From Escherichia coli (GTDB lineage: Bacteria; Pseudomonadota; Gammaproteobacteria; Enterobacterales; Enterobacteriaceae): 64,000 bases of DNA. Positions 1,910-61,752 of the stretch are shown here, one piece after another. A program made the position numbers and the translations under genes. Where the stretch lies: assembly GCF_965641715.1 (NCBI RefSeq), contig NZ_OZ282453.1. One strand, 5' to 3'. A model generated the notes under the pieces. That model was given only the letters and a program-made list of their open reading frames with translations. It was not told where the DNA came from and ran no database searches. Within the stretch, counting starts at the first letter, position 1. Each line of letters starts with the position of its first letter.

Positions 1910-2620
1910 GTGAAATACAAATTACTACCATGCTTACTCGCGATATTCCTCACAGGATGTGACCGCACAGAGGTAACACTTTCATTTACCCCTGAGATGG
2001 CCAGTTTCTCTAATGAATTCGATTTTGATCCGCTGCGTGGTCCGGTAAAAGATTTCACTCAGACATTAATGGATGAGCAAGGTGAAGTGACGAAACGTGT
2101 TTCGGGGACTTTGTCGGAAGAAGGCTGTTTTGATTCACTCGAATTACTGGATCTGGAAAATAATACCGTGGTCGCTCTGGTACTGGACGCCAATTATTAT
2201 CGTGATGCCGAGACGCTGGAGAAGAGAGTACGTTTACAGGGAAAATGCCAGCTAGCAGAATTACCTTCTGCCGGGGTGAGTTGGGAAACCGATGATAATG
2301 GCTTCGTGATTAAAGCCAGCAGCAAACAAATGCAGATGGAATATCGCTATGATGATCAGGGTTATCCACTGGGTAAGACCACGAAAAGTAACGACAAAAC
2401 ATTATCTGTCAGCGCCACGCCATCAACGGACCCGATCAAAAAATTAGATTACACAGCGGTTACTTTACTGAATAATCAACGAGTTGGTAATGTAAAACAG
2501 AGCTGTGAATATGACAGTCACGCCAATCCGGTGGACTGTCAGCTGATCATTGTTGATGAAGGAGTAAAACCCGCCGTCGAACGGGTTTACACCATCAAAA
2601 ATACAATCGATTATTATTAA
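1910..2620 (+). CDS. ynfC: UPF0257 lipoprotein
   Basis: ORF 1874..2620. A GTG start gives (M)KYKLLPCLLAIFLTGC with a lipobox and the 236-aa YnfC. Confidence 0.85.
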   Translation: MKYKLLPCLLAIFLTGCDRTEVTLSFTPEMASFSNEFDFDPLRGPVKDFTQTLMDEQGEVTKRVSGTLSEEGCFDSLELLDLENNTVVALVLDANYYRDAETLEKRVRLQGKCQLAELPSAGVSWETDDNGFVIKASSKQMQMEYRYDDQGYPLGKTTKSNDKTLSVSATPSTDPIKKLDYTAVTLLNNQRVGNVKQSCEYDSHANPVDCQLIIVDEGVKPAVERVYTIKNTIDYY

Positions 2621-2622
2621 TG

Positions 2623-3183
2623 CTATTGTGCGGTCGGCTTCAGGAGAGTCTGACCCGGTGTTTTGTGCTCTGCCAGATACTGATGCTGGAATATACACAT
2701 GCGAATGGCATTACGATATTGACCATTAATAAAGAACTCATGCATCAATTCACCTTCAACCGTAAAGCCAAGCTTGCGGTAAATGTGAATCGCTTTTTCA
2801 TTCTCTTTATCGACGATCAGATACAGCTTATAGAGATTGAGAACGGTGAAGCCATAGTCCATTGCTAATTTGGCGGCACGGGTTGCCAGACCTTTCCCCT
2901 GATACTCCGGGGAGATAATTATCTGAAATTCTGCGCGGCGATGTACATGGTTAATTTCCACCAACTCCACCAGACCGGCTTTTTCGCCGTCACATTCCAC
3001 CACAAAGCGTCGTTCGCTCTGATCGTGAATATGCTTATCATACAGATCAGAGAGTTCAACAAAGGCTTCGTAGGGTTCCTCAAACCAGTAACGCATCACA
3101 CTGGCGTTATTGTCGAGTTGATGTACATAGCGTAAATCTTCACGCTCCAGCGGGCGTAGCTTAACACTGTGGGCGCTTGGCAT
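2623..3183 (-). CDS. speG: spermidine N1-acetyltransferase (GNAT)
   Basis: The 186-aa [29 protein letters not shown]... matches SpeG. Confidence 0.95.
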
Positions 3184-3217: not shown

Positions 3218-3559
3218 TTAGGGGGTAATAACGCGGCCAGTTCGACGGTCCAGGCAGCGCAAAGTATTTGGCTCCCAGTAGGCATTGATGTTGGCGCTTT
3301 GCTCACATTTATCGCGGTTATCAAAAGCGGCGTCGGCTTTATCCCACTCTTTTTCAGTGCGTTTATTCACTTTCTGGCGCAGATTGCGCGTGTCATTCCA
3401 TTGCTCTTTTTCCATAGCGGCGTGCTGGCGGCTTTGTGCACTGTCGCCAGACTCAATCACCAGTTTGTTAGTTTCGGCATGAACAGTTGTGCTCAATGCC
3501 AGTGCGCAAGGCAGCAGAAAAGCGAGCAGGCCGATTCGTTTGCTGAGAGTGATTTTCAT
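3218..3559 (-). CDS. ynfB: UPF0482 secreted protein
   Basis: 113-aa ORF with a signal peptide, in K-12 synteny between speG and ynfA. Confidence 0.85.
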
Positions 3560-3693
3560 AATTCATTCCCTGTGTGAATGATTAAAGGTGATTCTACACC
3601 ATCCACTGCGGACGCAAAACGTACCAGGAGGGTGTTTATATTGATGATATTATGTCGCCCTATAACTATACATGATGTCAATAAGTGACAAAG

Positions 3694-4020
3694 ATGATTA
3701 AAACAACGTTACTATTTTTTGCTACTGCGCTGTGTGAAATTATTGGATGCTTTCTGCCCTGGTTGTGGTTAAAACGAAACGCCAGTGTCTGGCTGTTGCT
3801 TCCGGCGGGGATTTCACTGGCGCTGTTTGTCTGGTTGTTAACGTTGCATCCTGCGGCGAGTGGGCGTGTTTACGCGGCTTATGGTGGCGTTTATGTCTGC
3901 ACGGCGTTGATGTGGCTGCGCGTTGTGGATGGCGTGAAACTGACTCTTTATGACTGGACGGGTGCGTTGATTGCGCTTTGCGGCATGTTGATCATTGTTG
4001 CGGGCTGGGGGCGCACGTAG
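3694..4020 (+). CDS. ynfA: UPF0060 small inner-membrane protein
   Basis: ATG at 3694 gives [25 protein letters not shown]..., 108 aa with 4 predicted TM segments. Confidence 0.85.
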
Positions 4021-4225
4021 GAACATAAATCCATTTTATCAATAAGATACGAGGAAGTGTCAGCTGACAAAAGGTATTCTATTTCATCTTTTGTCAACCA
4101 TTCACAGTGCAAATATACGCCTTTTTTTGTGATCACTCCGGCTTTTTTCGATCTTCATGCTTGTATGGTAGTAGCTCAGTTGCGTAGATTTCATGCATCA
4201 CGACAAGCGATGCAAGGAATCGAAC

Positions 4226-5440
4226 ATGAAGATCGTAAAGGCTGAAGTTTTTGTTACCTGTCCGGGGCGTAATTTCGTCACATTAAAAATCACCACTGAG
4301 GACGGTATTACGGGCCTTGGGGATGCCACCCTCAATGGACGTGAGCTTTCCGTGGCCTCTTATTTGCAGGATCACCTTTGTCCGCAGCTTATTGGTCGCG
4401 ATGCGCACCGTATCGAAGATATCTGGCAGTTTTTCTATAAAGGTGCTTACTGGCGTCGCGGTCCGGTTACGATGTCGGCCATTTCAGCGGTTGATATGGC
4501 GCTGTGGGATATTAAAGCCAAAGCTGCCAACATGCCGCTTTACCAGTTACTCGGCGGCGCATCTCGTGAAGGGGTGATGGTTTATTGCCATACCACCGGT
4601 CACAGTATTGATGAAGCTCTGGATGATTATGCCCGTCATCAGGAGCTGGGATTCAAAGCCATCCGCGTGCAGTGCGGAATCCCTGGTATGAAAACCACCT
4701 ACGGCATGTCGAAAGGTAAAGGTCTGGCTTATGAACCCGCAACCAAAGGACAGTGGCCGGAAGAGCAGCTGTGGTCGACGGAGAAATACCTCGATTTCAT
4801 GCCGAAATTGTTTGACGCGGTACGTAACAAGTTTGGTTTTAATGAACATTTGCTGCATGACATGCACCATCGCTTAACGCCTATTGAAGCGGCGCGCTTT
4901 GGTAAAAGCATTGAAGATTATCGCATGTTCTGGATGGAAGACCCGACGCCTGCGGAAAACCAGGAATGCTTCCGTCTCATTCGCCAACATACCGTCACAC
5001 CCATCGCAGTGGGTGAAGTCTTCAACAGCATCTGGGACTGCAAACAACTGATTGAAGAGCAACTCATCGATTATATCCGCACCACGCTGACCCATGCAGG
5101 CGGAATTACCGGTATGCGCCGGATTGCCGATTTTGCTTCGCTGTATCAGGTACGTACTGGCTCACACGGTCCTTCCGATTTGTCACCAGTCTGCATGGCT
5201 GCAGCGCTGCACTTTGATCTGTGGGTCCCCAATTTCGGTGTCCAGGAATACATGGGTTATTCCGAACAAATGCTCGAAGTCTTCCCGCACAACTGGACTT
5301 TCGATAACGGCTATATGCATCCGGGAGACAAACCGGGTCTTGGTATCGAATTCGATGAAAAGCTGGCGGCGAAATATCCCTATGAACCTGCTTATCTACC
5401 AGTCGCACGTCTGGAAGATGGCACGCTGTGGAACTGGTAA
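4226..5440 (+). CDS. rspA: enolase-superfamily mannonate dehydratase-like starvation-sensing protein
   Basis: ATG at 4226 gives [27 protein letters not shown]..., 404 aa. Confidence 0.92.
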
Positions 5441-5451
5441 GGAGTAAGATA

Positions 5452-6471
5452 ATGAAAAGCATATTAATTGAAAAACCGAATCAACTGGCGATTGTCGAAC
5501 GTGAAATACCCACCCCGTCAGCGGGTGAAGTACGAGTAAAAGTGAAACTTGCCGGAATTTGTGGTTCAGATAGCCATATTTATCGTGGGCATAATCCTTT
5601 TGCGAAATATCCGCGCGTCATTGGACATGAATTCTTTGGCGTCATTGATGCGGTGGGTGAAGGTGTGGAAAGCGCCAGAGTCGGTGAACGTGTTGCTGTC
5701 GATCCGGTGGACAGCTGTGGTCATTGCTATCCGTGCTCTATAGGTAAGCCGAACGTTTGTACGACACTCGCTGTATTAGGTGTGCACGCTGACGGTGGTT
5801 TCAGTGAATATGCTGTGGTTCCGGCAAAAAATGCGTGGAAAATTCCTGAAGCAGTGGCCGATCAATATGCGGTGATGATCGAACCTTTTACCATTGCGGC
5901 TAACGTAACCGGTCATGGTCAACCGACTGAAAATGATACCGTTCTGGTTTATGGTGCCGGTCCAATCGGCCTGACGATCGTTCAGGTATTAAAAGGCGTC
6001 TATAACGTTAAAAATGTGATTGTTGCCGATCGCATTGATGAACGACTGGAAAAAGCGAAAGAGAGCGGGGCTGACTGGGTGATTAATAACAGCCAGACAC
6101 CGCTTGGCGAGATTTTCGCTGAAAAAGGCATCAAGCCGACATTAATTATTGATGCGGCTTGTCATCCTTCTATCCTGAAAGAGGCCGTAACGCTGGCTTC
6201 TCCAGCGGCACGTATTGTATTGATGGGCTTCTCCAGTGAACCTTCTGAAGTGATTCAGCAAGGAATTACCGGAAAAGAACTCTCTATTTTCTCTTCACGC
6301 TTAAATGCAAATAAATTTCCGGTCGTTATCGACTGGTTAAGTAAAGGGTTAATTAAACCAGAAAAATTAATTACCCATACGTTTGATTTCCAGCATGTTG
6401 CTGATGCCATTAGTTTATTTGAACAGGATCAAAAACATTGCTGCAAAGTCTTACTCACTTTTTCTGAATAA
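5452..6471 (+). CDS. rspB: zinc-type alcohol/polyol dehydrogenase-like starvation-sensing protein
   Basis: ATG at 5452 gives MKSILIEKPNQLAIVEREIP...GHEFFG...CGHCYPC, 339 aa. Confidence 0.92.
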   Translation: MKSILIEKPNQLAIVEREIPTPSAGEVRVKVKLAGICGSDSHIYRGHNPFAKYPRVIGHEFFGVIDAVGEGVESARVGERVAVDPVDSCGHCYPCSIGKPNVCTTLAVLGVHADGGFSEYAVVPAKNAWKIPEAVADQYAVMIEPFTIAANVTGHGQPTENDTVLVYGAGPIGLTIVQVLKGVYNVKNVIVADRIDERLEKAKESGADWVINNSQTPLGEIFAEKGIKPTLIIDAACHPSILKEAVTLASPAARIVLMGFSSEPSEVIQQGITGKELSIFSSRLNANKFPVVIDWLSKGLIKPEKLITHTFDFQHVADAISLFEQDQKHCCKVLLTFSE

Positions 6472-6528
6472 TACCAATAACGGCGAGTAAGTAGTACGCA
6501 TCTTACCTCTTTTTTAGAGATAACCATT

Positions 6529-6621
6529 ATGACAATAGAAAAACACGAAAGAAGCACTAAGGATTTGGTGAAAGCAGCAGTATCGGGATGGCTGGGCACT
6601 GCGCTTGAATTTATGGATTTC
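6529..6621 (+). pseudogene. ydfJ: 5' fragment (31 codons) of MFS transporter gene ydfJ, cut by prophage integration
   Basis: ATG 6529 gives MTIEKHERSTKDLVKAAVSGWLGTALEFMDF. The frame then runs into phage DNA and stops at 6657. The reading frame continues exactly at 52216 after the attR repeat. Confidence 0.75.
6611..6621. repeat. attL core (direct repeat TTATGGATTTC)
   Basis: Identical 11-mer at 52205-52215. It extends to about 16 bp, TGAAT(T)TATGGATTTC, with one 1-nt indel. Confidence 0.8.
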
Positions 6622-6658
6622 AAGAGTCATACGTGTCAACTATTTGATAAATATTAAA

Positions 6659-7939
6659 TTAATTTTTCATTGCTTCGTTATGGGGCATGGTTGGGGCAAA
6701 CTCGCTTAACTGTGTATTTAACAAAGCTACCTGTGCATTATTGTTTTCAGACATCCATTTTCCGTATACCTGAAATACCATTTGCGCATCTGCATGGCCC
6801 ATCTGGTTTGCTATAAATGCCGGGTTAGCACCAGCTGTCAGCGACCAGCAGGCATAAGTATGTCTCGACTGATATGATTTTCGATGGCGGAGTCCGGCAC
6901 GTTTTATCGCTGCGTCCCACATCTGCCTTATTGAGTCAACGGTAAAATGGTCACCATAATTTTTTACTCTCGCTGACACTTCAGGTTGAAAAACAAAGGT
7001 GCATTTTTGTTTTTCTGTTCTGCCATACTCTCTCAGGTGAACATCAATGATATGCTCTTTGCTCAGTCTCGTTAATGTCATCTGACTCCGGAGAGCGTCG
7101 ATTGCTGGCTTAATAAGATGAATGACCCGATTGGTTCCCGCCTGTGTTTTTGGTACCGTGAAACGGTCTTTTGCTAAATTTCTCCTGATCATCATTGTTC
7201 CATTTTTCAGATCTATGTCCTCCCATCCAAGTGCACACAGCTCACCAGGGCGAATGCCAGTATAAACAGAAACACACCATAAATTTTTTGCTTGCTGATT
7301 TCTGCACGCATCGATAAGACGGATAAATTCCTCCCGCGAAAGAGGATCCGGAATGGTTCTTGATTCCTTTAATGGCGAGATCCCCTTAAACGGATTATCT
7401 GCCAGGTAACCGTTATCAACACCAAACTGGAACACGGCGTTAAGATTTGTCATGTAATTATTTACAGTTACAGCCGATCTCCCTGGTTGTGTAACAATAT
7501 AGTTACTTTTGGGGATCTGGTATCCAGTCAGTAGCTCTTTACGAACCTCCAGTAATTTTTCTTTATTAATCGATGAGGCAAGATTTTTTTCACCGATTAT
7601 GCTCAGGATATTTTTGATGACGGCACGGTATGTGTTGAGTGATGTTTTGGCGACTTCAGTTTCTTTCAGTGCCAGAAATTTTTCAGCCAGTTCTTTTATG
7701 GTTAAATCTTGTCGGGCCTCACCAAATTTTTCCAGATTGCGTGAGGAGGGAAACTGTTTTGCATAGTCGAAAACACCAGTTTTTATTGCGTAACAAACAG
7801 AGGCGCGTAGTTCACCTGCAACGCGCCTGTTTTTTGCTGTGTCAGGAACCCCCAGATTTTCCCTGACTCTTACGCCTTTATAAACAAACCAGATACGTAA
7901 TTTCCCTCCATGGTTTTCCACGCCTGTCGGATATTTCAT
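6659..7939 (-). CDS. intQ: tyrosine-recombinase phage integrase
   Basis: ORF 6659..7954. MKYPTGVENHGGKLRIWFVYKG... with a C-terminal catalytic region ...SRHTYACWSLTAGANPAFIANQMGHADAQMVFQVYGKW (R..HxxR..Y). Adjacent to attL. Confidence 0.9.
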   Translation of the reverse strand: MKYPTGVENHGGKLRIWFVYKGVRVRENLGVPDTAKNRRVAGELRASVCYAIKTGVFDYAKQFPSSRNLEKFGEARQDLTIKELAEKFLALKETEVAKTSLNTYRAVIKNILSIIGEKNLASSINKEKLLEVRKELLTGYQIPKSNYIVTQPGRSAVTVNNYMTNLNAVFQFGVDNGYLADNPFKGISPLKESRTIPDPLSREEFIRLIDACRNQQAKNLWCVSVYTGIRPGELCALGWEDIDLKNGTMMIRRNLAKDRFTVPKTQAGTNRVIHLIKPAIDALRSQMTLTRLSKEHIIDVHLREYGRTEKQKCTFVFQPEVSARVKNYGDHFTVDSIRQMWDAAIKRAGLRHRKSYQSRHTYACWSLTAGANPAFIANQMGHADAQMVFQVYGKWMSENNNAQVALLNTQLSEFAPTMPHNEAMKN

Positions 7940-11407: not shown

Positions 11408-11465
11408 TAAAAACGGCGGCAGAGCAGTCACGGAGTAAAACTGATACCGCCAAACGTCACCAGAA
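11408..11465 (-). ncRNA. dicF: DicF small regulatory RNA (ftsZ-targeting)
   Basis: The minus strand reads TTTCTGGTGACGTTTGGCGGTATCAGTTTTACTCCGTGACTGCTCTGCCGCCGTTTTT, which is the DicF sequence with its terminator hairpin and U-tail, directly upstream of dicB. Confidence 0.9.
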
Positions 11466-13345: not shown

Positions 13346-13850
13346 ACAGGCTCGTGAGGCTCTGGATGCCTGGATATGTCGACCAGGAATGACACAGGAG
13401 CAGGCGACGATATTAATCACTGAAGCATTCTGGGCTTTGAAAGAGCGCCCGAACATCGATGTTCAGCGTGTCACAGATGAAGGTGGCGCGGTTGATCAGC
13501 GAGCGCTTGGCGTTAATCGAGTGAAGATATTCGAACGCTGGAAGGCTATCGACACTAGGGATAAGCGTGAAAAGTTCACGGCGCTAGTGCCTGCAATTAT
13601 GGAGGCTATCCGGATTAATGATTTCAGGTTGTATCGTGAAATTAGTGACGGAAAAAGCATCACGTACATGATCGCCGGGTTAAACAAAGAATATGGCGAT
13701 GTGGTGGAGTCCGGACTGCTTTTTGCTGATCCTGCCGTAGTGGATCGTGAAACTGACGAACTTATAGAAAAAGCAATTGCTTTCAAACTTGCGTATCGAC
13801 AGCAATACCAACAAAAAGCTGGATGGAATTATGAGCCTTCTTTTTGCTGA
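13329..13850 (+). CDS. YdaT-family (CII-analogue) regulator
   Basis: 173 aa. The block FERWKAIDTRDKREKFTALVPAIMEAI resembles Rac YdaT HRWLKGETKTQREKIQKLIPAILAIL. It lies downstream of the cro-like gene. Confidence 0.6.
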   Translation: MKITPEQAREALDAWICRPGMTQEQATILITEAFWALKERPNIDVQRVTDEGGAVDQRALGVNRVKIFERWKAIDTRDKREKFTALVPAIMEAIRINDFRLYREISDGKSITYMIAGLNKEYGDVVESGLLFADPAVVDRETDELIEKAIAFKLAYRQQYQQKAGWNYEPSFC

Positions 13851-14796
13851 ACGCCCACTGGTTATAAACACACAGCTTGCGATGAAGATTGGCTTAAATG
13901 AAGCCATTGTGTTGCAGCAGTTGCATTACTGGTTGAGAGATACCAATTCCGGCATGGAATGTGATGGTGTTCGCTGGATTTACAACACAACGGAACAATG
14001 GCTGGAACAGTTCCCATTCTGGTCAGAGTCAACGTTAAAGCGCGCGTTTGCAAGTCTGAAAACGCTGGGGCTTTTGCGTTGTGAAAAGCTCAATAAATCA
14101 AAGCGCGATATGACCAATTTCTACACGATCAACTACGGGAGCGAGCTTTTAGATGGTGGCAAATTGAGCGAATCCATCGGTTTAAAATGCGCCGCTCCAT
14201 CAGGTCAAAATGACACGATGGAAGAGGTCAAAATGAAACGCTCCATTGGTTCAAAACGACCCAATGTCATCGGGTCAAAATGGCCTGATGATCTTACAGA
14301 GAATACAACAGAGATTACTACAGAGAATAAAAACACTTTTCGTCCGGAAGCTTCGCAACCGGACCCGCAGACCGCTGAACAGGATTTTTTAACCCGGAAC
14401 CCCGACGCGGTTGTGTTTAGTGCGAAAAAACGCCAGTGGGGTAGCAGGGAGGATTTGGCGTGTGCGCAGTGGATTTGGGGGCGGATCGTGAACCTTTACG
14501 AACAGGCTGCCAGCGACGATGGAGAGATCATGCGACCAAAAGAGCCTAACTGGACAGCCTGGGCCAATGACGTGCGCACAATGCGGATGCTGGATGGCAG
14601 AAGCCACAGACAAATTTGCGAAATGTTTGGTCGGGTACAGCGAGATCAATTCTGGGTAAAAAACATCATGAGCCCGTCAAAACTCCGCGAAAAATGGGAC
14701 GAACTGGTCATCCGCCTGGGACGTTCACCTGTACAGCGTTGTATGAATCATATTTCTGAACCGGATACAGAAATTCCGCCTGGTTTCAGAGGATAA
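13831..14796 (+). CDS. replication initiator / replisome-organiser-like protein
   Basis: ATG 13831 gives MSLLFAERPLVINTQLAMKIGLNEAIVLQQLHYWL... (winged-helix-like N-terminus), at the position of lambda O. Confidence 0.6.
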   Translation: MSLLFAERPLVINTQLAMKIGLNEAIVLQQLHYWLRDTNSGMECDGVRWIYNTTEQWLEQFPFWSESTLKRAFASLKTLGLLRCEKLNKSKRDMTNFYTINYGSELLDGGKLSESIGLKCAAPSGQNDTMEEVKMKRSIGSKRPNVIGSKWPDDLTENTTEITTENKNTFRPEASQPDPQTAEQDFLTRNPDAVVFSAKKRQWGSREDLACAQWIWGRIVNLYEQAASDDGEIMRPKEPNWTAWANDVRTMRMLDGRSHRQICEMFGRVQRDQFWVKNIMSPSKLREKWDELVIRLGRSPVQRCMNHISEPDTEIPPGFRG

Positions 14797-14836
14797 GTTT
14801 TGATTTCAGGTCATGAGGTAATTTTAAGGGGGACTT

Positions 14837-15238
14837 GTGGCAAAAGTTTTTACACAAGAAGAGCGGGAAAAAATTAAAGGGCAGGTGGTGGAACTCGTGC
14901 GCCAGAGCGGTCGTGAGACGTTACGGCAACTGGAAGCTAAAACAGGTGCGACTAGATATCTGATGAGCGTTCTTGCCAGAGAGCTGGTAGCCAGTGGCGA
15001 TGTATACAACTCCGGCTACGGGTTATTCCCGTCTGAACAGGCGCGTAAGGACTGGCAAAACGCCCGCAAAAAACTATCGAGGGCAAAGGTGAAGAAAACA
15101 GCTGTGGTTGATCCGGACCTTATCTGGTCGTTACCTGATGGAGAAATACGTCGCTACGACAGTCGCCTAAACATAATCTGTCGCGAGTGCCGGATGAGTG
15201 AAGTTATGCAGCGCATACTGGCATTTTATCAGGGATAA
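14837..15238 (+). CDS. hypothetical 133-aa protein (winged-helix-like N-terminus, basic linker)
   Basis: GTG-start ORF after the replication gene. No helicase-loader motifs seen. Confidence 0.5.
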   Translation: MAKVFTQEEREKIKGQVVELVRQSGRETLRQLEAKTGATRYLMSVLARELVASGDVYNSGYGLFPSEQARKDWQNARKKLSRAKVKKTAVVDPDLIWSLPDGEIRRYDSRLNIICRECRMSEVMQRILAFYQG

Positions 15239-15619
15239 TGTTAGGTATTTTAGACGTTACTAGATTAAAAAGCATTAGTTCAGGAGTGAATTGACATTCT
15301 CATTTTTCATGGCACAGGGTAGATCTGGCGTGGTTGTCCGCTTTGTGCCAAGAGCGGACGTTGGTATGCAAGAGCCCTCCAAAAGTTGATGGTTGGTTTG
15401 CAGGGGGGCTTAAAGAAACTGCACTTATCAAGTTGAAGTTCTGTATTCAGCGAAATCGTAGCACTCTGACGATAAGTAACTCCGGTACTCCGCTCTTCGA
15501 TGAAGAACCAGAGTAATCCCCCCGAAAAACCAGCGCATCAAAATTGGATCTTCAGCGGTAGCTTATCGGCTATCGGAAGTACAGGTGTGGATTCGTGGTG
15601 AATTGCTTTGATAATAAAC

Positions 15620-15645
15620 GATTAATACGGAAAAACGTATTAATC
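15620..15645. terminator. hairpin GATTAATACG-gaaaaa-CGTATTAATC, terminator of the 449-aa gene
   Basis: Perfect 10-bp inverted repeat 28 nt downstream of the stop at 15673, with T-rich flanks on the minus strand. Confidence 0.6.
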
Positions 15646-15672
15646 ATTTATTAGCTTTTAGTAAACCACAAT

Positions 15673-17022
15673 TTATTCCGTTTTACATATCATAGTAGTC
15701 GATTGGAGAATATAGTTTCTGGGAATGTACTCTTCAAAGTGTTCGTCCTTTTTAAATACATGAACTACATTTGGGAATAATTGATAGTCAACAGGGTGTA
15801 TAGCGTTTGGATTATGGTACATGTACATGGCTGTACACCATGGTTCTTGATAGTTAGGGTCACTTACATCGGCTGAAAATGGATGTGGGGCTGCATCCTG
15901 ATCAGTTTTAACACCACTGACGTACACTTTGAATCCACTCGCCTCTACACCTGCAAGAATTCCCATCCGGTTAAACTTAGGTATGGTTGCTTGAGTAGTG
16001 AGTAAAACGGCAGAAACATAATTATTTTGTTCTGAGCCAAAAAAGTTCGACTTGATACTTCTATTTTCATCTGTATGTCTTTCAATAGAAATGCCTGACT
16101 CAATATCAATCCCGTACAAATAGCTATGCAAGGCTTCGCTTGAGAAGGCCATGGACATTCTTTTTGAATAATCCTGCATTGCTATGACAAATGGTTTGTT
16201 CTTTGTATGGTTGAGTTCCCAGTAATGAACTTTCTCTGGCTCAGGGCAATGCCGGACTTTTTTTAATAAACTTCTTGCAAACTTAAAAGGCATGACATTT
16301 AGAACATGTTTTCTTAATTCATCCATCTGTTCATCGTTAATGACTTTTCTTTCAAGAGGGGCTTCTGCTTCAGCAATGCTTACAGCCTCTACAGCAATTT
16401 CCACTCCAAATTTAGATAGCAGAAAATCTGGTTGATTGTATTCTCTATTCATTTCAAAGTCGAGTTCATAAAATACAGCGTTCAAATATAATTCAAATAA
16501 CCTTGAATTAAATGCATCACTTTGAAAATCCCTTATAAATATTCCATCAGGATCTTTGAACCAGTATGCAAGTTCCTCAAGAACAATATATGCAGGGAAA
16601 TGAGGAGGGTCTTCGAGGAGCATTTTTATATAAACATTCCTTTTTTTCTCTGGGACTTTACTCAAGAATAATGAAAAAGGTTTGGTTGATTCATCGCCTT
16701 GCATGAATGTACCATTTTGGTGCTGCGCCAGCATCTTTGGTATGTCATCGTTCAAATTATTAAGCAAGACATCCATTGAATCAAATGAAGCCAAGACGTT
16801 TATTGCTCTGAATTTTTTATCTAAATCCCGACCTAAGACTATTGCGTTAAAATCTTTATCAATATTGCATATGATTATTGTGGATAACAATGTTATCCCA
16901 TTCCCCTCATATTTAAACCAGCGTATCTCCTCAGAAAATGTCTTAAGGTAAGGTGAGCGACCGTAAAAATAAATATCAAATTGTTCTTTGCTGATCTCAC
17001 TGAAGTGTAATCCTGCGTTCAT
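15673..17022 (-). CDS. 449-aa orphan cytoplasmic protein; possible degenerate PD-(D/E)xK-like nuclease core; candidate defence/abortive-infection gene
   Basis: Single long ORF with SD AAGGAA. Strongly AT-rich and opposite in orientation to the flanking phage genes. Motif string RLFE177LYL...QPD199FLLSKFGVE208IAVE212AV. No TM segment, signal peptide or Walker A motif. Confidence 0.85.
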   Translation of the reverse strand: MNAGLHFSEISKEQFDIYFYGRSPYLKTFSEEIRWFKYEGNGITLLSTIIICNIDKDFNAIVLGRDLDKKFRAINVLASFDSMDVLLNNLNDDIPKMLAQHQNGTFMQGDESTKPFSLFLSKVPEKKRNVYIKMLLEDPPHFPAYIVLEELAYWFKDPDGIFIRDFQSDAFNSRLFELYLNAVFYELDFEMNREYNQPDFLLSKFGVEIAVEAVSIAEAEAPLERKVINDEQMDELRKHVLNVMPFKFARSLLKKVRHCPEPEKVHYWELNHTKNKPFVIAMQDYSKRMSMAFSSEALHSYLYGIDIESGISIERHTDENRSIKSNFFGSEQNNYVSAVLLTTQATIPKFNRMGILAGVEASGFKVYVSGVKTDQDAAPHPFSADVSDPNYQEPWCTAMYMYHNPNAIHPVDYQLFPNVVHVFKKDEHFEEYIPRNYILQSTTMICKTE

Positions 17023-17123
17023 ACCAATTCCTTTTCAATGAATAATTGGCCTTTAGGAGTGATTCCCTTTGTCTTTAATTCAGTTCTAACTAGTTCTTTA
17101 ATCCAATAGCCTAAGCTCATCAT
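17019..17123 (-). CDS. possible 34-aa leader/partner ORF translationally coupled to the 449-aa gene
   Basis: MMSLGYWIKELVRTELKTKGITPKGQLFIEKELV. Its TGA overlaps the ATG of the 449-aa gene (GTATGAAC). No clear SD. Confidence 0.25.
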   Translation of the reverse strand: MMSLGYWIKELVRTELKTKGITPKGQLFIEKELV

Positions 17124-17163
17124 GCAGTTGGATCATAAGACAACGCCCTATAGTGCTCGTGAT

Positions 17164-17191
17164 ACTATAGGGCATCTGACCACACTGTTAA
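17164..17191 (-). promoter_or_regulatory. predicted sigma70 promoter of the 449-aa gene (TTAACA-N16-TATAGT)
   Basis: On the minus strand the -35 is at 17186-17191 and the -10 at 17164-17169. The -10 lies inside the palindrome at 17145-17173. Confidence 0.45.
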
Positions 17192-17464
17192 CTGGAGTAA
17201 CGACTATGGCAGGAATACAGCATAACCAAACTCACCCCAAACTTACATAGCGCTTTCTGGCCGTGAGCATAACAAGGTCCACTCCTCGCTCAAAGCGGAC
17301 TAGAAGGTTAGCTTGTGTCGGACTTTGCGTATTAAATGACTAGTGGTTGAGCCCCATTTCCACAGAAAAAATCAGAGAAACTATACCCAATAGTTGTATT
17401 GAATCACTGACGAGACAGCCTCATATTCATCAGGACTGGTGTACGTCCAATACAGGAGGTTGTG

Positions 17465-17554
17465 GTGCTGGTTCTCAAATGTGCGCTGGCTATTACGGCT
17501 GTAATGGCGATTTATTGTCTTGCTATTGTTCTTATGGATCGCCTTTCTGACTGA
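17465..17554 (+). CDS. 29-aa hydrophobic peptide (30 aa if started at the adjacent GTG 17462): small membrane protein / type I toxin-like
   Basis: AGGAGG (17454-17459) lies 5 nt before GTG 17465. (M)LVLKCALAITAVMAIYCLAIVLMDRLSD, stop at 17552-17554. Confidence 0.45.
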   Translation: MLVLKCALAITAVMAIYCLAIVLMDRLSD

Positions 17555-17649
17555 TTTCACATTGGCGAGGTAACGGTAGTTAAGTAGAATGGCTGCGGGT
17601 GCTTGAGGCTATCTGCCTCGGGCATGAACACCAACGGCAGATAGAGAAA

Positions 17650-17717
17650 AGCCCCAGTTAACATTACGCGTCCTGCAAGACGCTTAACATTAATCTGAGG
17701 CCAATTTCATGCTAGAC
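17650..17717 (-). ncRNA. sok: Sok-like antisense RNA (approximate limits)
   Basis: Minus-strand promoter TTGCCT (17747-17752)-N17-TAACCT (17724-17729), antisense to the mok start region. The 3' end was not determined. Confidence 0.35.
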
Positions 17718-17921
17718 ACATGTAGGTTAGCCTCTTACGTGCCGAAAGGCAAGGAGAAGCAGGCTATGAAGCAGCAAAAGGCGATGTTAATCGCCCTGAT
17801 CGTCATCTGTTTAACCGTCATAGTGACGGCACTGGTAACGAGGAAAGACCTCTGCGAGGTACGAATCCGAACCGGGCAGACGGAGGTCGCTGTCTTCACA
17901 GCTTACGAACCTGAGGAGTAA
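17709..17921 (+). CDS. mok: Mok (modulator of killing) reading frame overlapping hok
   Basis: 70-aa ORF that starts upstream of hok and reads through it in the same frame. This is standard hok/mok architecture. Confidence 0.6.
   Translation: MLDTCRLASYVPKGKEKQAMKQQKAMLIALIVICLTVIVTALVTRKDLCEVRIRTGQTEVAVFTAYEPEE
17766..17921 (+). CDS. hokD: Hok/Gef-family type I membrane toxin
   Basis: MKQQKAMLIALIVICLTVIVTALVTRKDLCEVRIRTGQTEVAVFTAYEPEE (51 aa). Confidence 0.9.
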   Translation: MKQQKAMLIALIVICLTVIVTALVTRKDLCEVRIRTGQTEVAVFTAYEPEE

Positions 17922-17989
17922 GAGACCCGGCGAGGGAGAAATCCCTCGCCACCTCTGATGTGGCAGGCATCCTCAACGCACCCGCACTT

Positions 17990-18012
17990 AACCCGCTTCG
18001 GCGGGTTTTTGT
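17990..18012 (+). terminator. rho-independent terminator of hok mRNA
   Basis: ACCCGC-ttcg-GCGGGT followed by a T-run. Confidence 0.75.
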
Positions 18013-18137
18013 TTTTATTTTCAACGCGTTTGAAGTTCTGGACGGTGCCGGAATAGAATCAAAAATACTTAAGTAGCGCGCAGGGATAAGAGGGATGGTC
18101 CCTTAAAGGGGAGAGCTAATTATCCGGAAGGATTCTG

Positions 18138-18389
18138 ATGATGAACATCGAAGAACTGCGTAAAATTTTTTGTGAAGATGGCCTCTATGCGGTGTGCGTT
18201 GAAAATGGAAATCTTGTTAGTCATTACCGCATTATGTGTTTGCGAAAGAATGGGGCTGCGTTAATTAATTTTGTGGATGGTCGAGTGACAGACGGATTTA
18301 TCTTGCGCGAAGGTGAGTTTGTCACTTCATTACAGGCACTGAAAGAGATCGGAATAAAAGCAGGCTTTTCAGCTTTTGCAGAAGAATAA
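18138..18389 (+). CDS. rem: 83-aa protein at the rem position
   Basis: SD GGAAGGA. Same length (83 aa) and synteny (hok - rem - ydfU) as K-12 Rem. Sequence identity not verified. Confidence 0.5.
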   Translation: MMNIEELRKIFCEDGLYAVCVENGNLVSHYRIMCLRKNGAALINFVDGRVTDGFILREGEFVTSLQALKEIGIKAGFSAFAEE

Positions 18390-18455
18390 ACTCATCTACA
18401 ATCTTGCGCGGGGCTGAACTCCCGCTGAGTAACACCGTGCCACCGGAGAAAACCG

Positions 18456-18734
18456 ATGGCACGCAACGTAAAATATTACAATTCTGATAATTCGCCCGTT
18501 CTTGCCTGCACGCACGAGCGGTATTCTCACGCATTCAAGTCTGAATGGTTCCAACACCCTCCATGCACTGAAGAGCAGGCTGAATGGATAATTCAGTGTT
18601 ACTGCAGGCGCGGATACGAGGTTAAGAAAGCCCTTAGTCTCGACTACCGTCACTGGATAATCTCAGTCAGATTGCCTTACTCCGAACGCCCACCACGTGC
18701 GTCCCGCACTTTCCAGCAACGGATCTGGAGGTAA
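18456..18734 (+). CDS. hypothetical 92-aa Cys/His-containing protein
   Basis: SD GGAG 8 nt upstream. The stop abuts the ydfU start (coupled). Confidence 0.5.
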   Translation: MARNVKYYNSDNSPVLACTHERYSHAFKSEWFQHPPCTEEQAEWIIQCYCRRGYEVKKALSLDYRHWIISVRLPYSERPPRASRTFQQRIWR

Positions 18735-18735
18735 C

Positions 18736-19785
18736 GTGCGGGTATTACTTAGACCTGTTCTGGTGCCTGAGCTTGGGCTGGTGGTCCTTAAGCCGGGCCG
18801 TGAATCCATACAGATATTTCATAATCCTCGAGTGCTGGTGGAACCGGAACCAAAAAGCATGCGTAATCTGCCATCCGGAGTCGTTCCTGCCGTTGGCCAG
18901 CCGCTGGCGGAAGACAAAACATTGCTGCCGTTTTTTAGTAACGAACGGGTGATTCGTGCTGCTGGCGGCGTTGGCGCATTGTCTGACTGGCTATTACGTC
19001 ATGTTACATCCTGCCAGTGGCCTAATGGAGATTACCATCACACTGAAACAGTCATTCACCGTTATGGTACCGGCGCAATGGTGTTGTGTTGGCACTGCGA
19101 CAACCAACTGCGTGACCAGACATCGGAATCACTGGAGCTGCTTGCTCAACAAAATCTGACAGCATGGGTGATTGACGTCATCCGTCACGCAATAAGCGGT
19201 ACGCAGGAGCGGGAATTATCTTTGGCTGAATTATCCTGGTGGGCGGTCTGCAATCAGGTGGTGGATGCACTACCTGAGGCTGTATCGCGTCGTTCGCTGG
19301 GATTACCAGCGGAAAAAATCTGCTCGGTGTACCGCGAAAGCGACATCGTACCGGGAGAGCAGACCGCCACCAGCATACTGAAACAGCGCACAAAAAATCT
19401 TGCGCCGCTGCCTCACGCCCACCAGCAACAGAACCCACCACAGGAAAAGACGGTGGTCAGCATTGCCGTTGATCCTGAGTCTCCGGAATCTTTCATGAAA
19501 CGACCTAAACGTCGCCGCTGGGTTAACGAGAAATACAAACGCTGGGTGAAGACACAGCCGTGTGCGTGTTGTGGTAAGCCAGCCGACGATCCCCATCACC
19601 TGATTGGTCATGGTCAGGGCGGAATGGGGACAAAATCTCACGATATTTTCACGCTACCGCTGTGTCGGGAGCATCACAACGAGCTTCATGCGGATCCTCT
19701 GGCGTTCGAAGAAAAGCATGGTTCTCAGGTTGATTTAATTTTTCGTTTTCTTGATCACGCCTTTGCAACTGGCGTGCTTGGGTAA
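18736..19785 (+). CDS. ydfU: DUF968 protein with C-terminal HNH-like zinc motif
   Basis: GGAGG then GTG 18736 gives 349 aa. C-terminus: CACCGKPADDPHHLIGHGQGGMGTKSHDIFTLPLCREHHNELH. Confidence 0.8.
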   Translation: MRVLLRPVLVPELGLVVLKPGRESIQIFHNPRVLVEPEPKSMRNLPSGVVPAVGQPLAEDKTLLPFFSNERVIRAAGGVGALSDWLLRHVTSCQWPNGDYHHTETVIHRYGTGAMVLCWHCDNQLRDQTSESLELLAQQNLTAWVIDVIRHAISGTQERELSLAELSWWAVCNQVVDALPEAVSRRSLGLPAEKICSVYRESDIVPGEQTATSILKQRTKNLAPLPHAHQQQNPPQEKTVVSIAVDPESPESFMKRPKRRRWVNEKYKRWVKTQPCACCGKPADDPHHLIGHGQGGMGTKSHDIFTLPLCREHHNELHADPLAFEEKHGSQVDLIFRFLDHAFATGVLG

Positions 19786-21133: not shown

Positions 21134-21209
21134 GGCCCTTTAGCTCAGTGGTGAGAGCGAGCGACTCATAATCGCCAGGTCGCTGGTTCAAATCCAGCAA
21201 GGGCCACCA
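21134..21209 (+). tRNA. ileZ: tRNA-Ile2 (anticodon CAU, ileX/ileZ-like)
   Basis: Manual cloverleaf with acceptor GGCCCTT/AAGGGCC, anticodon loop CTCATAA, T-loop TTCAAAT and a 3' CCA. Close to E. coli ileX. Confidence 0.85.
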
Positions 21210-21309: not shown

Positions 21310-21386
21310 GCGTTGTTAGCTCAGCCGGACAGAGCAATTGCCTTCTAAGCAATCGGTCACTGGTTCGAATCCAGTACAGCGCGCCA
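21310..21386 (+). tRNA. argO: tRNA-Arg (anticodon UCU)
   Basis: Acceptor GCGTTGT/ACAGCGC, anticodon stem ATTGC/GCAAT with loop CTTCTAA, T-loop TTCGAAT, CCA end. Confidence 0.85.
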
Positions 21387-21850: not shown

Positions 21851-22324
21851 ATACATATCTGGATTATCACCTGTTACGGTAAAAAGTGATTGCTTACTGT
21901 TTTTGTGAATGGCATTGCAGCAGCCGGATAATGTCAGTGCTGGCTGACGGTGTGCTGGTGGCGGGTGTGGTGGTTGTTGCTTTCCCGTTGCTGAAAAAGA
22001 AAACGCCAGACTGTTAGCCGGGTATCAGTTAGCGGGAGAAATTTTTAAATACTTCACAATTCAGGCGGTTGACTGTTCTCTGGTTTGCGGGGAGTTTGTT
22101 AAAAGAAACTGGCATGGTGAATCCCCCTGTGCGGAGGGGCAATCAGCGAGTAGGTATATGGGATAATCGCGGATTCAGGTGCTGGTACTGAATTCACCGG
22201 GAGGCACCCGGCACCATGCACTTCAATAGATTCTCTCCACATTATGGATATTCTTTCAGAATATCCCACGCAGACTTTGTGTAAATGTTAACAAATGTGC
22301 GTTTTATTTGATCTGATTCGCTGT

Positions 22325-22383: not shown

Positions 22384-22812
22384 ATGGGTTTTCGTAGCGC
22401 ATCAATTCTTACGTTGATTATTAGTGGGATTATTATCGGGTGCACTGATGCTGTATCGACAAATTATCATGACCGTACATCATATTACTCCGATAAAGCA
22501 ATAGAGACACAGTATGTGAGTTCATCTGAACGTACTTCTGATGTTAGTGAGGATATCCGTCTGTATGCCCATCAAATCAAGAGCGCCATCGAAAAACAGT
22601 TCGGGGATGCGAGTAAGTATTCAGGAAAAGAGTGTACACTGAGAATGCATATGGCCCCGAATGGCCTTCTACTGGAGGTTAAAAGAGAAAGTGGAGACCT
22701 CGATTTATGTCGTGAAGCGATGAATGCGATAAAGAATGCTGATATACCTGCCCCCCCTTCGCCGGAAGTATATAAAGTATTTCAAAATGGGGTGCTGGAT
22801 TTTAAACCCTGA
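22384..22812 (+). CDS. lipoprotein with TolA C-terminal (domain III)-like domain, copy 1
   Basis: Lipobox IIGC. C-terminus YAHQIKSAIEKQFGDASKYSGKECTLRMHMAPNGLLLEVKRESGDLDLCREAMNAIKNADIPAPPSPEVYKVFQNGVLDFKP, compared with TolA YAGQIKSAIESKFYDASSYAGKTCTLRIKLAPDGMLLDIKPEGGDPALCQAALAAAKLAKIPKPPSQAVYEVFKNAPLDFKP (from memory). Confidence 0.85.
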   Translation: MGFRSASILTLIISGIIIGCTDAVSTNYHDRTSYYSDKAIETQYVSSSERTSDVSEDIRLYAHQIKSAIEKQFGDASKYSGKECTLRMHMAPNGLLLEVKRESGDLDLCREAMNAIKNADIPAPPSPEVYKVFQNGVLDFKP

Positions 22813-22962
22813 TATTTATTGTTTTGTAATAAACGGTTTCGGCTTAGGTTTGTTCTGACACAACTACGGCACTGAGCTAAATTTAGCGGATAGTCAGCTC
22901 TGAGCCAGTGGCGGACGTAACAACTACTATTGCTGAGATTTTAATGGATTGAGGAGCAAGAA

Positions 22963-23358
22963 GTGGGATTAAAGAAAATCGTTATGTTGACTTTTTGGGT
23001 CGGTTTTGTTGCGGGATGCACACCTTTACACCCTTCAGATTGCCACAAAACTACTGCTACAGGTAGTTGCAGTTCAGGACGCTGGGATGATCAGGATGAA
23101 TGGGGGGCGCAAGCGCGGGGAATCAGAGCTGCAATTAATGCCAAACTTGATGAGCCGCATAACTGGAAAGGGAAAAAATGCAGGTTGCATATGGAATTCT
23201 CTCAGGATGGCACGGCGTTAAAAATATCTACCAGTAACGGTGATAAAGCCTATTGCGAAGCGATAAAGTCCGCAGCTCATAAAGCCAAATTTCCGGCCTT
23301 CAACAATCCGGAAGTCTACAGAGATTTTCAGAAATCTGGCTTTGACATGCGAGGTTAG
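22963..23358 (+). CDS. lipoprotein with divergent TolA domain III-like domain, copy 2
   Basis: SD GAGGAG then GTG. Lipobox VAGC. ...IRAAINAKLDEPHNWKGKKCRLHMEFSQDGTALKISTSNGDKAYCEAIKSAAHKAKFPAFNNPEVYRDFQKSGFDM keeps the two Cys residues and the EVY..F block. Confidence 0.75.
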   Translation: MGLKKIVMLTFWVGFVAGCTPLHPSDCHKTTATGSCSSGRWDDQDEWGAQARGIRAAINAKLDEPHNWKGKKCRLHMEFSQDGTALKISTSNGDKAYCEAIKSAAHKAKFPAFNNPEVYRDFQKSGFDMRG

Positions 23359-25165: not shown

Positions 25166-25528
25166 ATTAATATTAAATCGGATTATTTTTAGCGCTGAAT
25201 GTGAAATTTAAATAAAAAGGACTCTTCCATGAGTCAAAATCCTTGAAATCTTAAGGGTAAGATAAAAGGTCATTAGACAGAATGACACGTTTTATTAATA
25301 AATAAAGCTATTGTTTCATTCGTGTGTTTTTCTTTACAAAAGTAATCCTTGCTATGGTTGGTTAATCATGCGTTAATGGTGTTCTGGTTTGTTACAAAAT
25401 TATCTGAAGCAGTCATTGTTATAATTTTATTATTTGTACCTCTTGAGATTTCCTTGTTGGTTTTTCTCTCTGATATTTTTTTTCGGACCATTCTGCCCAA
25501 GGGCTAACTTCTTCAAAAGGTAATAATG

Positions 25529-25741
25529 ATGTCTAACAAAATGACTGGTTTAGTGAAATGGTTTAACCCTGAAAAAGGTTTTGGTTTCATCACGCCGAAA
25601 GATGGTAGCAAAGATGTGTTTGTGCATTTCTCAGCTATTCAGAGCAACGATTTCAAAACGTTAACTGAGAATCAGGAAGTCGAATTTGGTATTGAGAACG
25701 GACCTAAAGGCCCTGCAGCTGTTCATGTAGTGGCACTTTGA
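25529..25741 (+). CDS. cspI: cold-shock protein CspI
   Basis: [70 protein letters not shown]. Confidence 0.92.
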
Positions 25742-25775
25742 GGTAGAAAATATTACAAACCATATTCACTTTAGA

Positions 25776-25940
25776 TGCCCGTGTTGCCATGGTTCTCAGT
25801 ATAGAACATCATCTTTTGATGTTTCTGACAGAAATCCTTTCGGGGCAAAATGTATCTTTTGTAAATCAATGATGATTACATTTGATAATATTTCACAATA
25901 CTTAAATGTTAGCCATCTGTCGTTAGATTTAAGAAAGTGA
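25776..25940 (+). other. zinc-ribbon-like small reading frame lacking a canonical start (possible ynfQ/ymcF-family small protein or its remnant)
   Basis: CPCCHGSQYRTSSFDVSDRNPFGAKCIFCKSMMITFDNISQYLNVSHLSLDLRK. The frame is open from 25731 but has no ATG, GTG or TTG upstream. A terminator follows. Confidence 0.3.
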
Positions 25941-49608: not shown

Positions 49609-50183
49609 TGGCATTCAGAATGAGTGAACAACCACGGACCATAAAAATTTATAATCTGCTGGCAGGAACTAATGAATTTATTGGTGAAGGTGACGCATAT
49701 ATTCCGCCTCATACAGGTCTGCCAGCAAACAGTTCCTATATTGCACCGCCAGATATTCCGGCTGGCTTCGTGGCTGTTTTCAACAGTGATGAGGCATCGT
49801 GGCATCTCGTTGAAGATCATCGGGGTAAAACCGTCTATGACGTGGCTTCCGGCGACGCGTTATTTATTTCTGAACTTGGCCCATTACCGGAAAATATCAC
49901 CTGGTTATCCCCGGAAGGGGAGTTTCAGAAGTGGAACGGCACAGCCTGGGTGAAGGATACGGAAGCAGCAAAACTGTTCCGGATCCGGGAGGCGGAAGAA
50001 ACAAAAAACAACCTGATGCAGGTAGCCAGTGAGCATATTGCGCCGCTTCAGGATGCTGCAGATCTGGAAATTGCAACGGAGGAAGAAATCTCGTTGCTGG
50101 AAGCATGGAAAAAGTATCGGGTATTGCTGAACCGTGTTGATACGTCAACTGCACAGGATATTGAATGGCCAGCACTGCCGTAG
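49608..50183 (+). CDS. tfaQ: tail fibre assembly chaperone Tfa
   Basis: [41 protein letters not shown]..., 191 aa. Confidence 0.9.
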
Positions 50184-61533: not shown

Positions 61534-61578
61534 GCTCCGTTTAACATTCATTGAGAAAACTGATGCTACTGTGTCAAC

Positions 61579-61677
61579 GATCCGTTATCAGTGCAGGAAA
61601 ATGCCTGTTAGCGTAAAAGCAAAACACAAATCTATCCATGCAAGCATTCACCGCCGGTTTACTGGCGGTTTTTTTTT
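61579..61677 (+). ncRNA. mgrR: MgrR small RNA (PhoP-regulated, Hfq-dependent)
   Basis: About 98-nt unit ending in the terminator CACCGCCGG-tttac-TGGCGG followed by T9, between dgcZ and mgtS as in K-12. The 5' end was inferred from a TACTGT -10-like hexamer. Confidence 0.7.
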
Positions 61678-61752
61678 CGCCGTCATAAAAATCAGGCCCC
61701 TTGTACACAACTGTAACAAGGGGCCGGTTAGGTGAGGGATTATCTCCGTTCA

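Follow-up and report, generated by a model that had tools for sequence, protein, structure and literature searches.

A defence-gene cassette bounded by two palindromic sites in a lambdoid prophage hotspot of Escherichia coli

The DNA analyzed here is a 64,000-nucleotide (nt) stretch of an Escherichia coli genome (RefSeq assembly GCF_965641715.1, contig NZ_OZ282453.1), hereafter the window, in which positions 15239-18012 form a short islet inside a lambdoid prophage. An earlier note on this DNA had described the islet as a compact cargo hotspot of 2.8 kb packing three toxin/defence-like modules: a reverse-oriented orphan gene of 449 codons, which we assign to the anti-phage defence system PD-T7-1, a small open reading frame (ORF) for a hydrophobic peptide, and a hok/mok/sok locus. 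Our comparative analysis makes it probable that the islet consists of one exchangeable cassette, carrying PD-T7-1 and lying between two palindromic sites termed A and B, together with two modules resident in the prophage backbone. The parts of these modules are known or ordinary, and the interest of the locus is its site-bounded cassette architecture, which is common to phage P2 and other elements.

Frequencies were counted over 5,426 complete E. coli genomes. Both flanks of the islet are found in thousands of them, whereas the PD-T7-1 cassette is found in only 200, in one copy each, and different cargo occupies the same place in other prophages; the interval is a cargo hotspot, as had been proposed, and is not invariant. 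Its exchangeable part spans 1,965 bp (15336-17300) rather than 2.8 kb. The small ORF and hok/sok, previously read as swappable cargo, belong to a constant right flank that begins at 17301, follows site B irrespective of cargo and co-occurs with many different cassettes. Among the matches listed, the E. coli genomes bearing the cassette carry essentially the entire unit (at least 99% of its length). The match to the P2-like Yersinia phage vB_YpM_46 covers 15336-17301 (98.9%), that to Morganella phage IME1369_01 covers 15338-17301 (96%) and that to the PD-T7-1 segment of E. coli IPCEC31 covers 15336-17300 (99.6%). In vB_YpM_46 the cassette lies between a tail-fibre assembly gene and the FI sheath gene, and in IME1369_01 between a tail-fibre gene and umuDC. 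The same cargo is hence present in unrelated P2-like, Morganella phage and lambdoid backbones, with breakpoints at the repeats.

Two exact site matches are found in the window, against 0.5 expected by chance at up to two mismatches, and as single-stranded DNA site A folds at -8.4 kcal/mol (z = -3.8). The conserved leader that precedes site A contains GGCACAG (15311-15317), which is the site-A core in reverse complement; the same leader is found ahead of site A in many lambdoid loci, and a similar one in P2-like phages. The 30 nt outside site A are alike in the window (15306-15335) and at the phage P2 locus (L130, 1806-1835), both reading ATGGCACAGrGTA, despite unrelated genes next to them. The inverted repeat is prolonged outward in P2-like phages by the flanks, AATCTGACA before A and TGTCAGATT after B. 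The roughly 430 nt of hairpin-containing non-coding DNA that the earlier note saw at 15239-15672 do lack an intact ORF, but they are not a single unit, being composed of backbone, site A and the 3' tail of the cassette. Within this tail, an AlpA-like remnant has a translation ending in VAYRLSEVQVWIRGELL before its stop codon, and an A+T-rich, terminator-like hairpin folds at -11.4 kcal/mol (z = -6.5). An Rfam search of 15200-17650 at a permissive threshold left the palindromes, the non-coding tail and the region of the small ORF without a match.

The 449-residue protein encoded by the cassette matches the PADLOC model for PD-T7-1 (PDLC04073, E = 4.2e-157), with residues 8-447 aligned to profile positions 2-448 of 452, and more weakly the related PD-T7-5 model; it has no Pfam or NCBIfam family match. 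With more than 200 homologues at E ≤ 1e-5 across Proteobacteria, it is not an orphan, although its ORF is as first described. PD-T7-1 was found by functional selection from strain ECOR46 (Vassallo et al. 2022, PMC9519451), in a clone holding a single ORF of 1,350 nt with 302 nt upstream and 45 nt downstream that protected E. coli, more strongly against T-even phages than against T7, and its product was labelled 'Nuclease' (PMC9519451). The gene in the window is likewise a single gene of 1,350 nt with its own upstream region inside a prophage. It differs in residing between the replication and Q modules of an mEp460-like lambdoid prophage, the original coming from ECOR46. On the strength of the profile match, we identify the gene as PD-T7-1, a validated single-gene defence system, and predict that this copy is protective. 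An AlphaFold2 model built on a 33-sequence alignment reached a predicted local distance difference test score of 89.8 and a predicted template modelling score of 0.89, and the alignment shows D199, E212 and K255 to be invariant and K247 nearly so. Given these conserved residues, the confident model and the 'Nuclease' label, a nuclease-based mechanism appears likely.

The cassette contains one intact ORF and a predicted promoter that falls inside the 302 nt of upstream sequence sufficient for defence in the original clone. With this promoter and the terminator-like hairpin, it would constitute a self-contained unit, from which PD-T7-1 may be expressed in the repressed prophage and may shield the lysogen from T-even and T7-type phages through nucleic-acid cleavage. 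A perfect inverted repeat overlapping the predicted -10 element folds at -9.0 kcal/mol (z = -4.4) and may be an operator for some regulator. The 34-codon ORF upstream of the gene has no match in Pfam, NCBIfam, PHROGs or PADLOC, its exact sequence was not found in a collection of 15 billion proteins, and it is probably merely a 5' leader.

In the constant flank, the small hydrophobic ORF is present on the plus strand with a consensus Shine-Dalgarno sequence, as the earlier note had it. We place its start at the GTG at 17465, giving 29 aa, instead of the listed GTG at 17462 (30 aa), because other alleles have GTC at 17462. The ORF is present in 1,720 genomes, about a third, with a RefSeq annotation in none, and protein collections name the peptide only 'hypothetical'. 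It has one predicted membrane-spanning stretch and no match in Pfam, NCBIfam, PHROGs or PADLOC; Rfam has no match to the ORF, and a consensus scan found no minus-strand promoter over it. Fourteen alleles among 18 distinct sequences are all in frame, with variable sites distributed 6/5/11 over the three codon positions, so that third-position changes dominate. The ratio of nonsynonymous to synonymous polymorphism (pN/pS) is about 0.28, a value that is indicative only since the pairs are not independent. The block from the putative promoter to the stop codon is retained in phage HannyBb despite unrelated upstream DNA, and also in two loci where the hok promoter has been replaced. Judged by these patterns, the ORF looks to be under purifying selection and is probably a genuine small membrane protein; calling the peptide a toxin, as the toxin/defence-like tag did from its hydrophobicity alone, is a guess.

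The neighbouring hok/mok/sok locus looks canonical and intact, in agreement with its first description: it shares with hok/sok of plasmid R1 and with the chromosomal hokD/'hokW' loci of lambdoid prophages the Hok peptide, an overlapping mok, the RF01794 leader, end pairing and a terminator. It resides on a prophage, unlike the plasmid locus of R1, and its role there may be stabilization or abortive defence. In the minimum-energy fold of the hok mRNA (z = -7.5), the 5' end (GGGUGCUUGAGG, 17597-17608) pairs with the 3' fbi element (17972-17984), as would be expected of the closed form of hok mRNAs. The putative Sok promoter fits less well, as it is a weak match on the minus strand near 17791-17750 (TTAACA-18-TAGCCT), picked out by eye and missed by the consensus scan. 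An unstable Sok antisense RNA would stop mok/hok translation, and the stable hok mRNA would kill cells that no longer produce Sok.

Table 1. Features of the islet and of the adjoining prophage genes, in window positions
Position	Strand	Feature	Basis or remark
13777-14796		Replication protein, preceded by cI-like repressor, cro and YdaT	Gene order upstream of islet
14837-15238		DUF977/Ren-like protein	Immediately left of islet
15239-15335		Prophage backbone, intergenic	After DUF977/Ren-like gene
15336-17300		Whole exchangeable cassette	1,965 bp
15336-15359	+	Site A, left boundary, GTCCGCT-TTGTGCCAAG-AGCGGAC (full 24-mer GTCCGCTTTGTGCCAAGAGCGGAC)	Exact match
15360-15672		Cassette 3' tail	
15531-15611	+	AlpA-like helix-turn-helix pseudogene remnant, 27 codons (C-terminal 26 aa)	RefSeq annotation, identical region
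15613-15652		A+T-rich hairpin, 17-bp stem, 20 nt beyond PD-T7-1 stop	Terminator-like, putative
15673-17022	-	PD-T7-1 anti-phage defence gene, 449 aa	Putative PD-(D/E)XK nuclease-like core
17019-17123	-	34-codon ORF upstream of PD-T7-1, overlapping its start via ATGA	ORF list
17145-17173		Perfect 10-bp inverted repeat GCCCTATAGT-N9-ACTATAGGGC	Overlaps predicted -10 of PD-T7-1 promoter
17164-17191	-	Predicted sigma-70 promoter of PD-T7-1, TTAACA-16-TATAGT	10/12 positions, consensus scan
17277-17300	-	Site B, right boundary, minus-strand GTCCGCT-TTGAGCGAGG-AGTGGAC (full 24-mer GTCCGCTTTGAGCGAGGAGTGGAC)	
17301-18012		Right flank (small ORF and hok/sok)	
17399-17427	+	Predicted small-ORF promoter, TTGAAT-17-CATATT	Read from sequence; not reported by consensus scan
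17465-17554	+	29-aa hydrophobic ORF, M-LVLKCALAITAVMAIYCLAIVLMDRLSD	Shine-Dalgarno AGGAGG 17454-17459; never annotated in RefSeq
17562-17590	+	hok promoter, TTGGCG-17-TAGAAT	Consensus scan
17597-18012	+	Full-length hok mRNA	
17597-17771	+	Sok-target leader	Rfam RF01794, 115.3 bits vs gathering 59, model 1-157/157
17709-17921	+	mok, 70 aa, containing hok in frame	
17766-17921	+	hok	Pfam HOK_GEF PF01848, E = 3e-23; identical gene is hokD in RefSeq
17990-18007	+	Terminator of hok mRNA	Consensus scan
18138-18389		Rem, followed by DUF968/YdfU, RusA and Q	Right of islet

The sites that bound the cassette belong to a large family. The consensus of site A is GTCCGCT-yTGTGCCArr-AGCGGAC, and site B, which is inverted, keeps these arms but has TGAGCGA as its core. 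Scanning viral contigs for the arms alone (GTCCGCT-N10-AGCGGAC) yielded at least 120 loci, whose 10-nt centres mostly belong to class A (yTGTGCCArn) or class B (wTGAGCGArr), alongside a few minor classes. A search for the arrangement A(+), cargo, B(-) retrieved 57 pairs enclosing about 40 distinct cargos of 0.6-5 kb, mostly of low G+C content and in both orientations. Stacked cassettes are joined as B, a semi-conserved linker of roughly 17 nt, and A; E. coli IPCEC31 is one strain with an array of three. The cargo includes PD-T7-1, TIR-domain proteins, HEC-08, a GIY-YIG nuclease, a large helicase-nuclease, a RelA/SpoT-like protein and a ParA-like three-gene set, as well as regulators with dehydrogenases, NUDIX with HAD proteins, acetyltransferases and transporters. 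In phage P2 (NC_001895), site A (15335-15358) and a degenerate site B (17432-17455) surround fun(Z), and the same sites flank the equivalent locus in L-413C, phage 899 and others.

With one genome per species, a scan for the tandem joint detected 117 stretches, nearly all from Enterobacterales (Pantoea, Erwinia, Rahnella, Klebsiella, Citrobacter, Serratia, Kluyvera and others), the exception being one record titled as an uncultured Veillonella assembly. These arrays reside on chromosomes and large plasmids, reach five cassettes in 8 kb and carry mostly regulators, exporters, reductases and arsenic-resistance genes. No P2 gpG/FI or lambdoid flank genes were found near the 117 joints, so many arrays belong to neither of these two phage backbones. 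Among E. coli genomes the sites are scarce: 1,607 genomes have any (median 1, maximum 4) and 70% have none. In other strains, the lambdoid hotspot holds GIY-YIG, PD-T7-1, an integrase and a 326-aa gene; the 326-aa gene, HEC-08, an integrase and DUF4365; or GFA, HEC-08, an integrase and DUF4365, and in other prophages a regulator with an acetyltransferase, NUDIX with HAD, and others.

Several further observations concern these sites and their cargo. The viral loci of the arm scan (L008-L127) include the loop classes TTCGGTCAGA, TCCGGCCAGA and TTGGGTCAAA, which may be extra site specificities of the same system. Hotspot cargo at locus L005 comprises a GIY-YIG nuclease-family protein of 314 aa (2090-3034) and the 326-aa protein (6211-7191), which is widespread and has no family; at locus L248 it comprises the HEC-08 defence candidate of 366 aa (E = 1e-173; 3515-4615) and a DUF4365 protein of 331 aa (5928-6923). 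The DUF4365 and 326-aa proteins are candidates for defence functions. The window itself has a third, diverged site at 22893-22916 (GTCAGCTCTGAGCCAGTGGCGGAC), with a hybrid TGAGCCA core and a left leader of the same type, placed in the Q-to-lysis interval where it separates two paralogous lipoprotein-like ORFs (22384-22812 and 22963-23358). It may be a second, decayed cassette boundary of the same prophage.

The point of exchange was mapped by pairwise comparison of site instances that share either their outside flank or their cassette. At both A and B, instances with the same outside flank and different cassettes show nearly all their differences at positions 16-24 of the 24-mer, and instances with the same cassette and different outside flanks differ at positions 1-8. 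These complementary patterns place the crossover within the invariant 7-bp core, at positions 9-15. The right arm of B accordingly follows the backbone whatever the cassette, reading AGCAGAC in P2-like phages, AGCGGAC in the lambdoid backbone and AAGGGAC beside the recombinase gene described below, and the cassette of the 326-aa gene keeps TGTGCCATAAGCGGAA-gtattt while its left arm varies with the neighbour. The left and right lambdoid flanks joined through a single site were found in none of the 5,426 genomes: the hotspot is always occupied.

This breakpoint pattern is the one expected of a tyrosine-recombinase core site, in which two inverted binding arms surround an overlap region. A and B would then be such sites, with 7-bp inverted arms (GTCCGCT/AGCGGAC) around a 10-bp centre, and strand exchange would take place inside the 7-bp core, TGTGCCA in A and TGAGCGA in the inverted B. 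Since the two cores differ at two positions, A would pair with A and B with B, never A with B, and cassettes would be swapped or stacked between phages, islands and plasmids, not simply deleted, much as in recombinase-mediated cassette exchange with heterospecific sites. Such a barrier between A and B would be consistent with the lack of single-site joints. The candidate enzyme is a 200-aa, Xer-like tyrosine recombinase (Pfam Phage_integrase; for example WP_113419545.1 or WP_001305361.1) encoded in the same lambdoid hotspot of other strains, where its gene sits exactly in the joint, with a B half-site to the left and an A half-site to the right. Hotspots that carry it, though otherwise identical, show differing cassette orders, and it is also found in a chromosomal island beside HEC-08 and, overall, in 912 E. 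coli genomes.

Several results weigh against this account of the exchange. The recombination mechanism is inferred throughout from comparison, and homologous recombination restricted to the conserved core could yield similar breakpoints. Position 8 of site A also differs in 17 of 100 pairs with the same outside flank. The 200-aa protein is a generic catalytic-domain tyrosine recombinase scoring below every curated family cut-off; it has no relative within the window and is present in just five of 237 fetched site-bearing loci, the other 232 lacking distant relatives as well. If it is the enzyme, its absence from the window and from most loci means that it acts in trans or acted formerly. Arm changes are mostly one-sided, outnumbering compensatory ones, and site B of the window folds poorly. 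These last two observations also leave a hairpin-dependent mechanism acting on single-stranded DNA unsupported.

Recombination of the ordinary homologous kind (RecA, Red or RecET) would offer a different origin for the shuffling, the palindromes then being conserved regulatory or insulating elements, terminator- or operator-like, and we consider this unlikely without dismissing its merits. The sites are the sole sequence common to different cassettes, so that homologous exchange must fall there; a nearby recombinase is missing from most site-bearing loci; lambdoid phages possess recombinases that act efficiently on short homologies; and site A does fold as a stable hairpin. Arbiol and colleagues reportedly proposed, in 2010, recombination of this type for promoter/stem-loop cassettes of T4-type phages. 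Yet 24 bp is very short for efficient exchange, and the breakpoints cluster in the central 7 bp even though the 7-bp arms are equally conserved. Nor would homologous exchange lead one to anticipate two strictly separate core classes, an A-left/B-right polarity fixed in all 57 retrieved pairs, a tyrosine recombinase gene precisely between half-sites or the lack of an empty site. As for a terminator-like role, no T-run follows the palindromes, which lie outside the predicted transcription unit.

It is far less plausible that the cassette is a non-autonomous transposon, akin to a miniature inverted-repeat transposable element (MITE) or to a REPIN, with terminal inverted repeats of about 24-34 bp mobilized in trans by a transposase or by a HUH/RAYT enzyme recognizing hairpins. 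Site A and the reverse complement of site B do form imperfect inverted repeats, with a similarity that in the PD-T7-1 cassette reaches about 10 bp inward (GTTGGTATGC vs CTTGTTATGC), and the B-linker-A doublets recall those of repetitive extragenic palindromic (REP) sequences. The inward extension is, however, not common to other cassettes, no associated transposase was found, and copy number is very low. The transposon reading was rejected for the lack of target-site duplication in three insertion contexts and for the behaviour of the outer arms, which segregate with the neighbouring DNA and not with the cassette, a poor fit to an element carrying its own ends; REP, REPIN or bacterial interspersed mosaic element (BIME) repeats are ruled out by the copy number. 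We find it just as hard to credit that the three modules form one functional unit, in which PD-T7-1 would have, for instance, the small peptide or hok/sok as its effector or regulator. The modules are less than 1 kb apart, and the small ORF is read divergently from the PD-T7-1 promoter, but PD-T7-1 with its 302 nt of upstream sequence conferred defence alone in the original clone, and the P2-like and Morganella phages carry it with neither hok nor the small ORF. The small ORF and hok accompany many other cassettes, and the frequencies differ (the cassette is in 200 genomes, the small ORF in 1,720 and the flanks in thousands). Of the two options left by the earlier note, independent or linked modules, it is independence that these observations favour.

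Site-bounded exchange of cassettes has a direct precedent. Inverted repeats flanking fun(Z) in P2-like coliphages were reported by Nilsson, Karlsson and Haggard-Ljungquist in 2004, as summarized in PMC8987985, together with the idea, which is also ours, that phage and bacterial genomes undergo exchange at these repeats. In P2, fun(Z) lies between the same 24-bp sites, and the PD-T7-1 cassette occupies that locus in vB_YpM_46; unlike the P2 case, the sites in the window delimit a hotspot in an unrelated lambdoid backbone. Relative to the 2004 work as it is summarized in PMC8987985, the extension to PD-T7-1 and a lambdoid hotspot, the division of the cores into two classes, the mapping of the exchange window, the constant occupancy of the site, the Enterobacterales arrays and the junction recombinase appear to be new, and some of these additions may already be in the original article. 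The hotspot studies of Rousset 2022 and Vassallo 2022 (PMC9519451) make no mention of repeats, hairpins or recombinases at hotspots, and a literature search with the site sequences as text returned nothing relevant.

Integrons resemble the present system in their arrays of diverse cargo, including defence genes, their short imperfect palindromic sites, their tyrosine recombinase and their shuffled order. Here, by contrast, each cassette has two different sites and the recombinase lies inside the junction, not at a platform. The integron assignment was rejected: the two IntI-type integrase models, whose cut-offs are 435 and 265 bits, score just 16.7 and 15.9, the site consensus lacks the GTTRRRY core, and the cargo occurs in both orientations with its own promoters or regulators. 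The pdif (XerC/D) modules of Acinetobacter plasmids are alike in being bounded by oppositely oriented short recombination sites and in occurring in tandem; they differ in that the hosts here are Enterobacterales phages and chromosomes and the enzyme is only a candidate, and the arms of A and B are presumably unlike the XerC/XerD binding sequences of dif. Engineered recombinase-mediated cassette exchange with heterospecific lox or FRT sites offers a further parallel, as cores of different specificity would let cassettes be swapped without being deleted.

Hotspots in phages and prophages are now regarded as major reservoirs of anti-phage systems, and the entry and exit of their cargo are mostly unexplained. 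Here the limits of the cassette that holds a validated defence gene are placed with single-base precision and coincide with the sites that bound the P2 fun moron and dozens of other cargos. The analysis offers a testable mechanism, in which cassettes would be exchanged site-specifically at two heterospecific sites by an enzyme for which a candidate is named, and the A/B signature could serve to mine cassettes, and hence candidate defence genes, independently of gene content. A broader proposal, which we advance tentatively and regard as somewhat doubtful, is that the A/B palindromes form a natural heterospecific cassette-exchange system across Enterobacterales, run by the minimal 200-aa recombinase embedded in the junctions and shuttling defence and metabolic genes. 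If this were true, the system would move PD-T7-1, Fun, HEC-08, TIR and GIY-YIG genes among P2-like, lambdoid and other phages, islands and megaplasmids, and A/B exchange would be a mechanistic cause of 'defence hotspots' that differs from integrons and reaches beyond the P2 Z/fun case.

The prophage around the islet is 99.9% identical to Escherichia phage mEp460_ev081 over 14800-18400, and prophages in several E. coli chromosomes are equally close over the same interval. G+C content is 0.33-0.40 over the 449-aa gene vs about 0.45-0.54 in the flanks. To the right, a 92-aa ORF (18456-18734) overlaps the start of the DUF968/YdfU ORF (18697-19785), and its RefSeq equivalent is frameshifted in one strain and intact in another. 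Elsewhere in the window, Rfam matches at gathering level are DicF (11414-11465, minus strand) and, on the plus strand, two tRNAs downstream of Q (21134-21206 and 21310-21383), STnc100 (22083-22273), a cspA-type thermoregulator (25371-25787) ahead of a CspA-family ORF (25526-25741), IS009 (49951-50149) and STnc560 (61545-61759).

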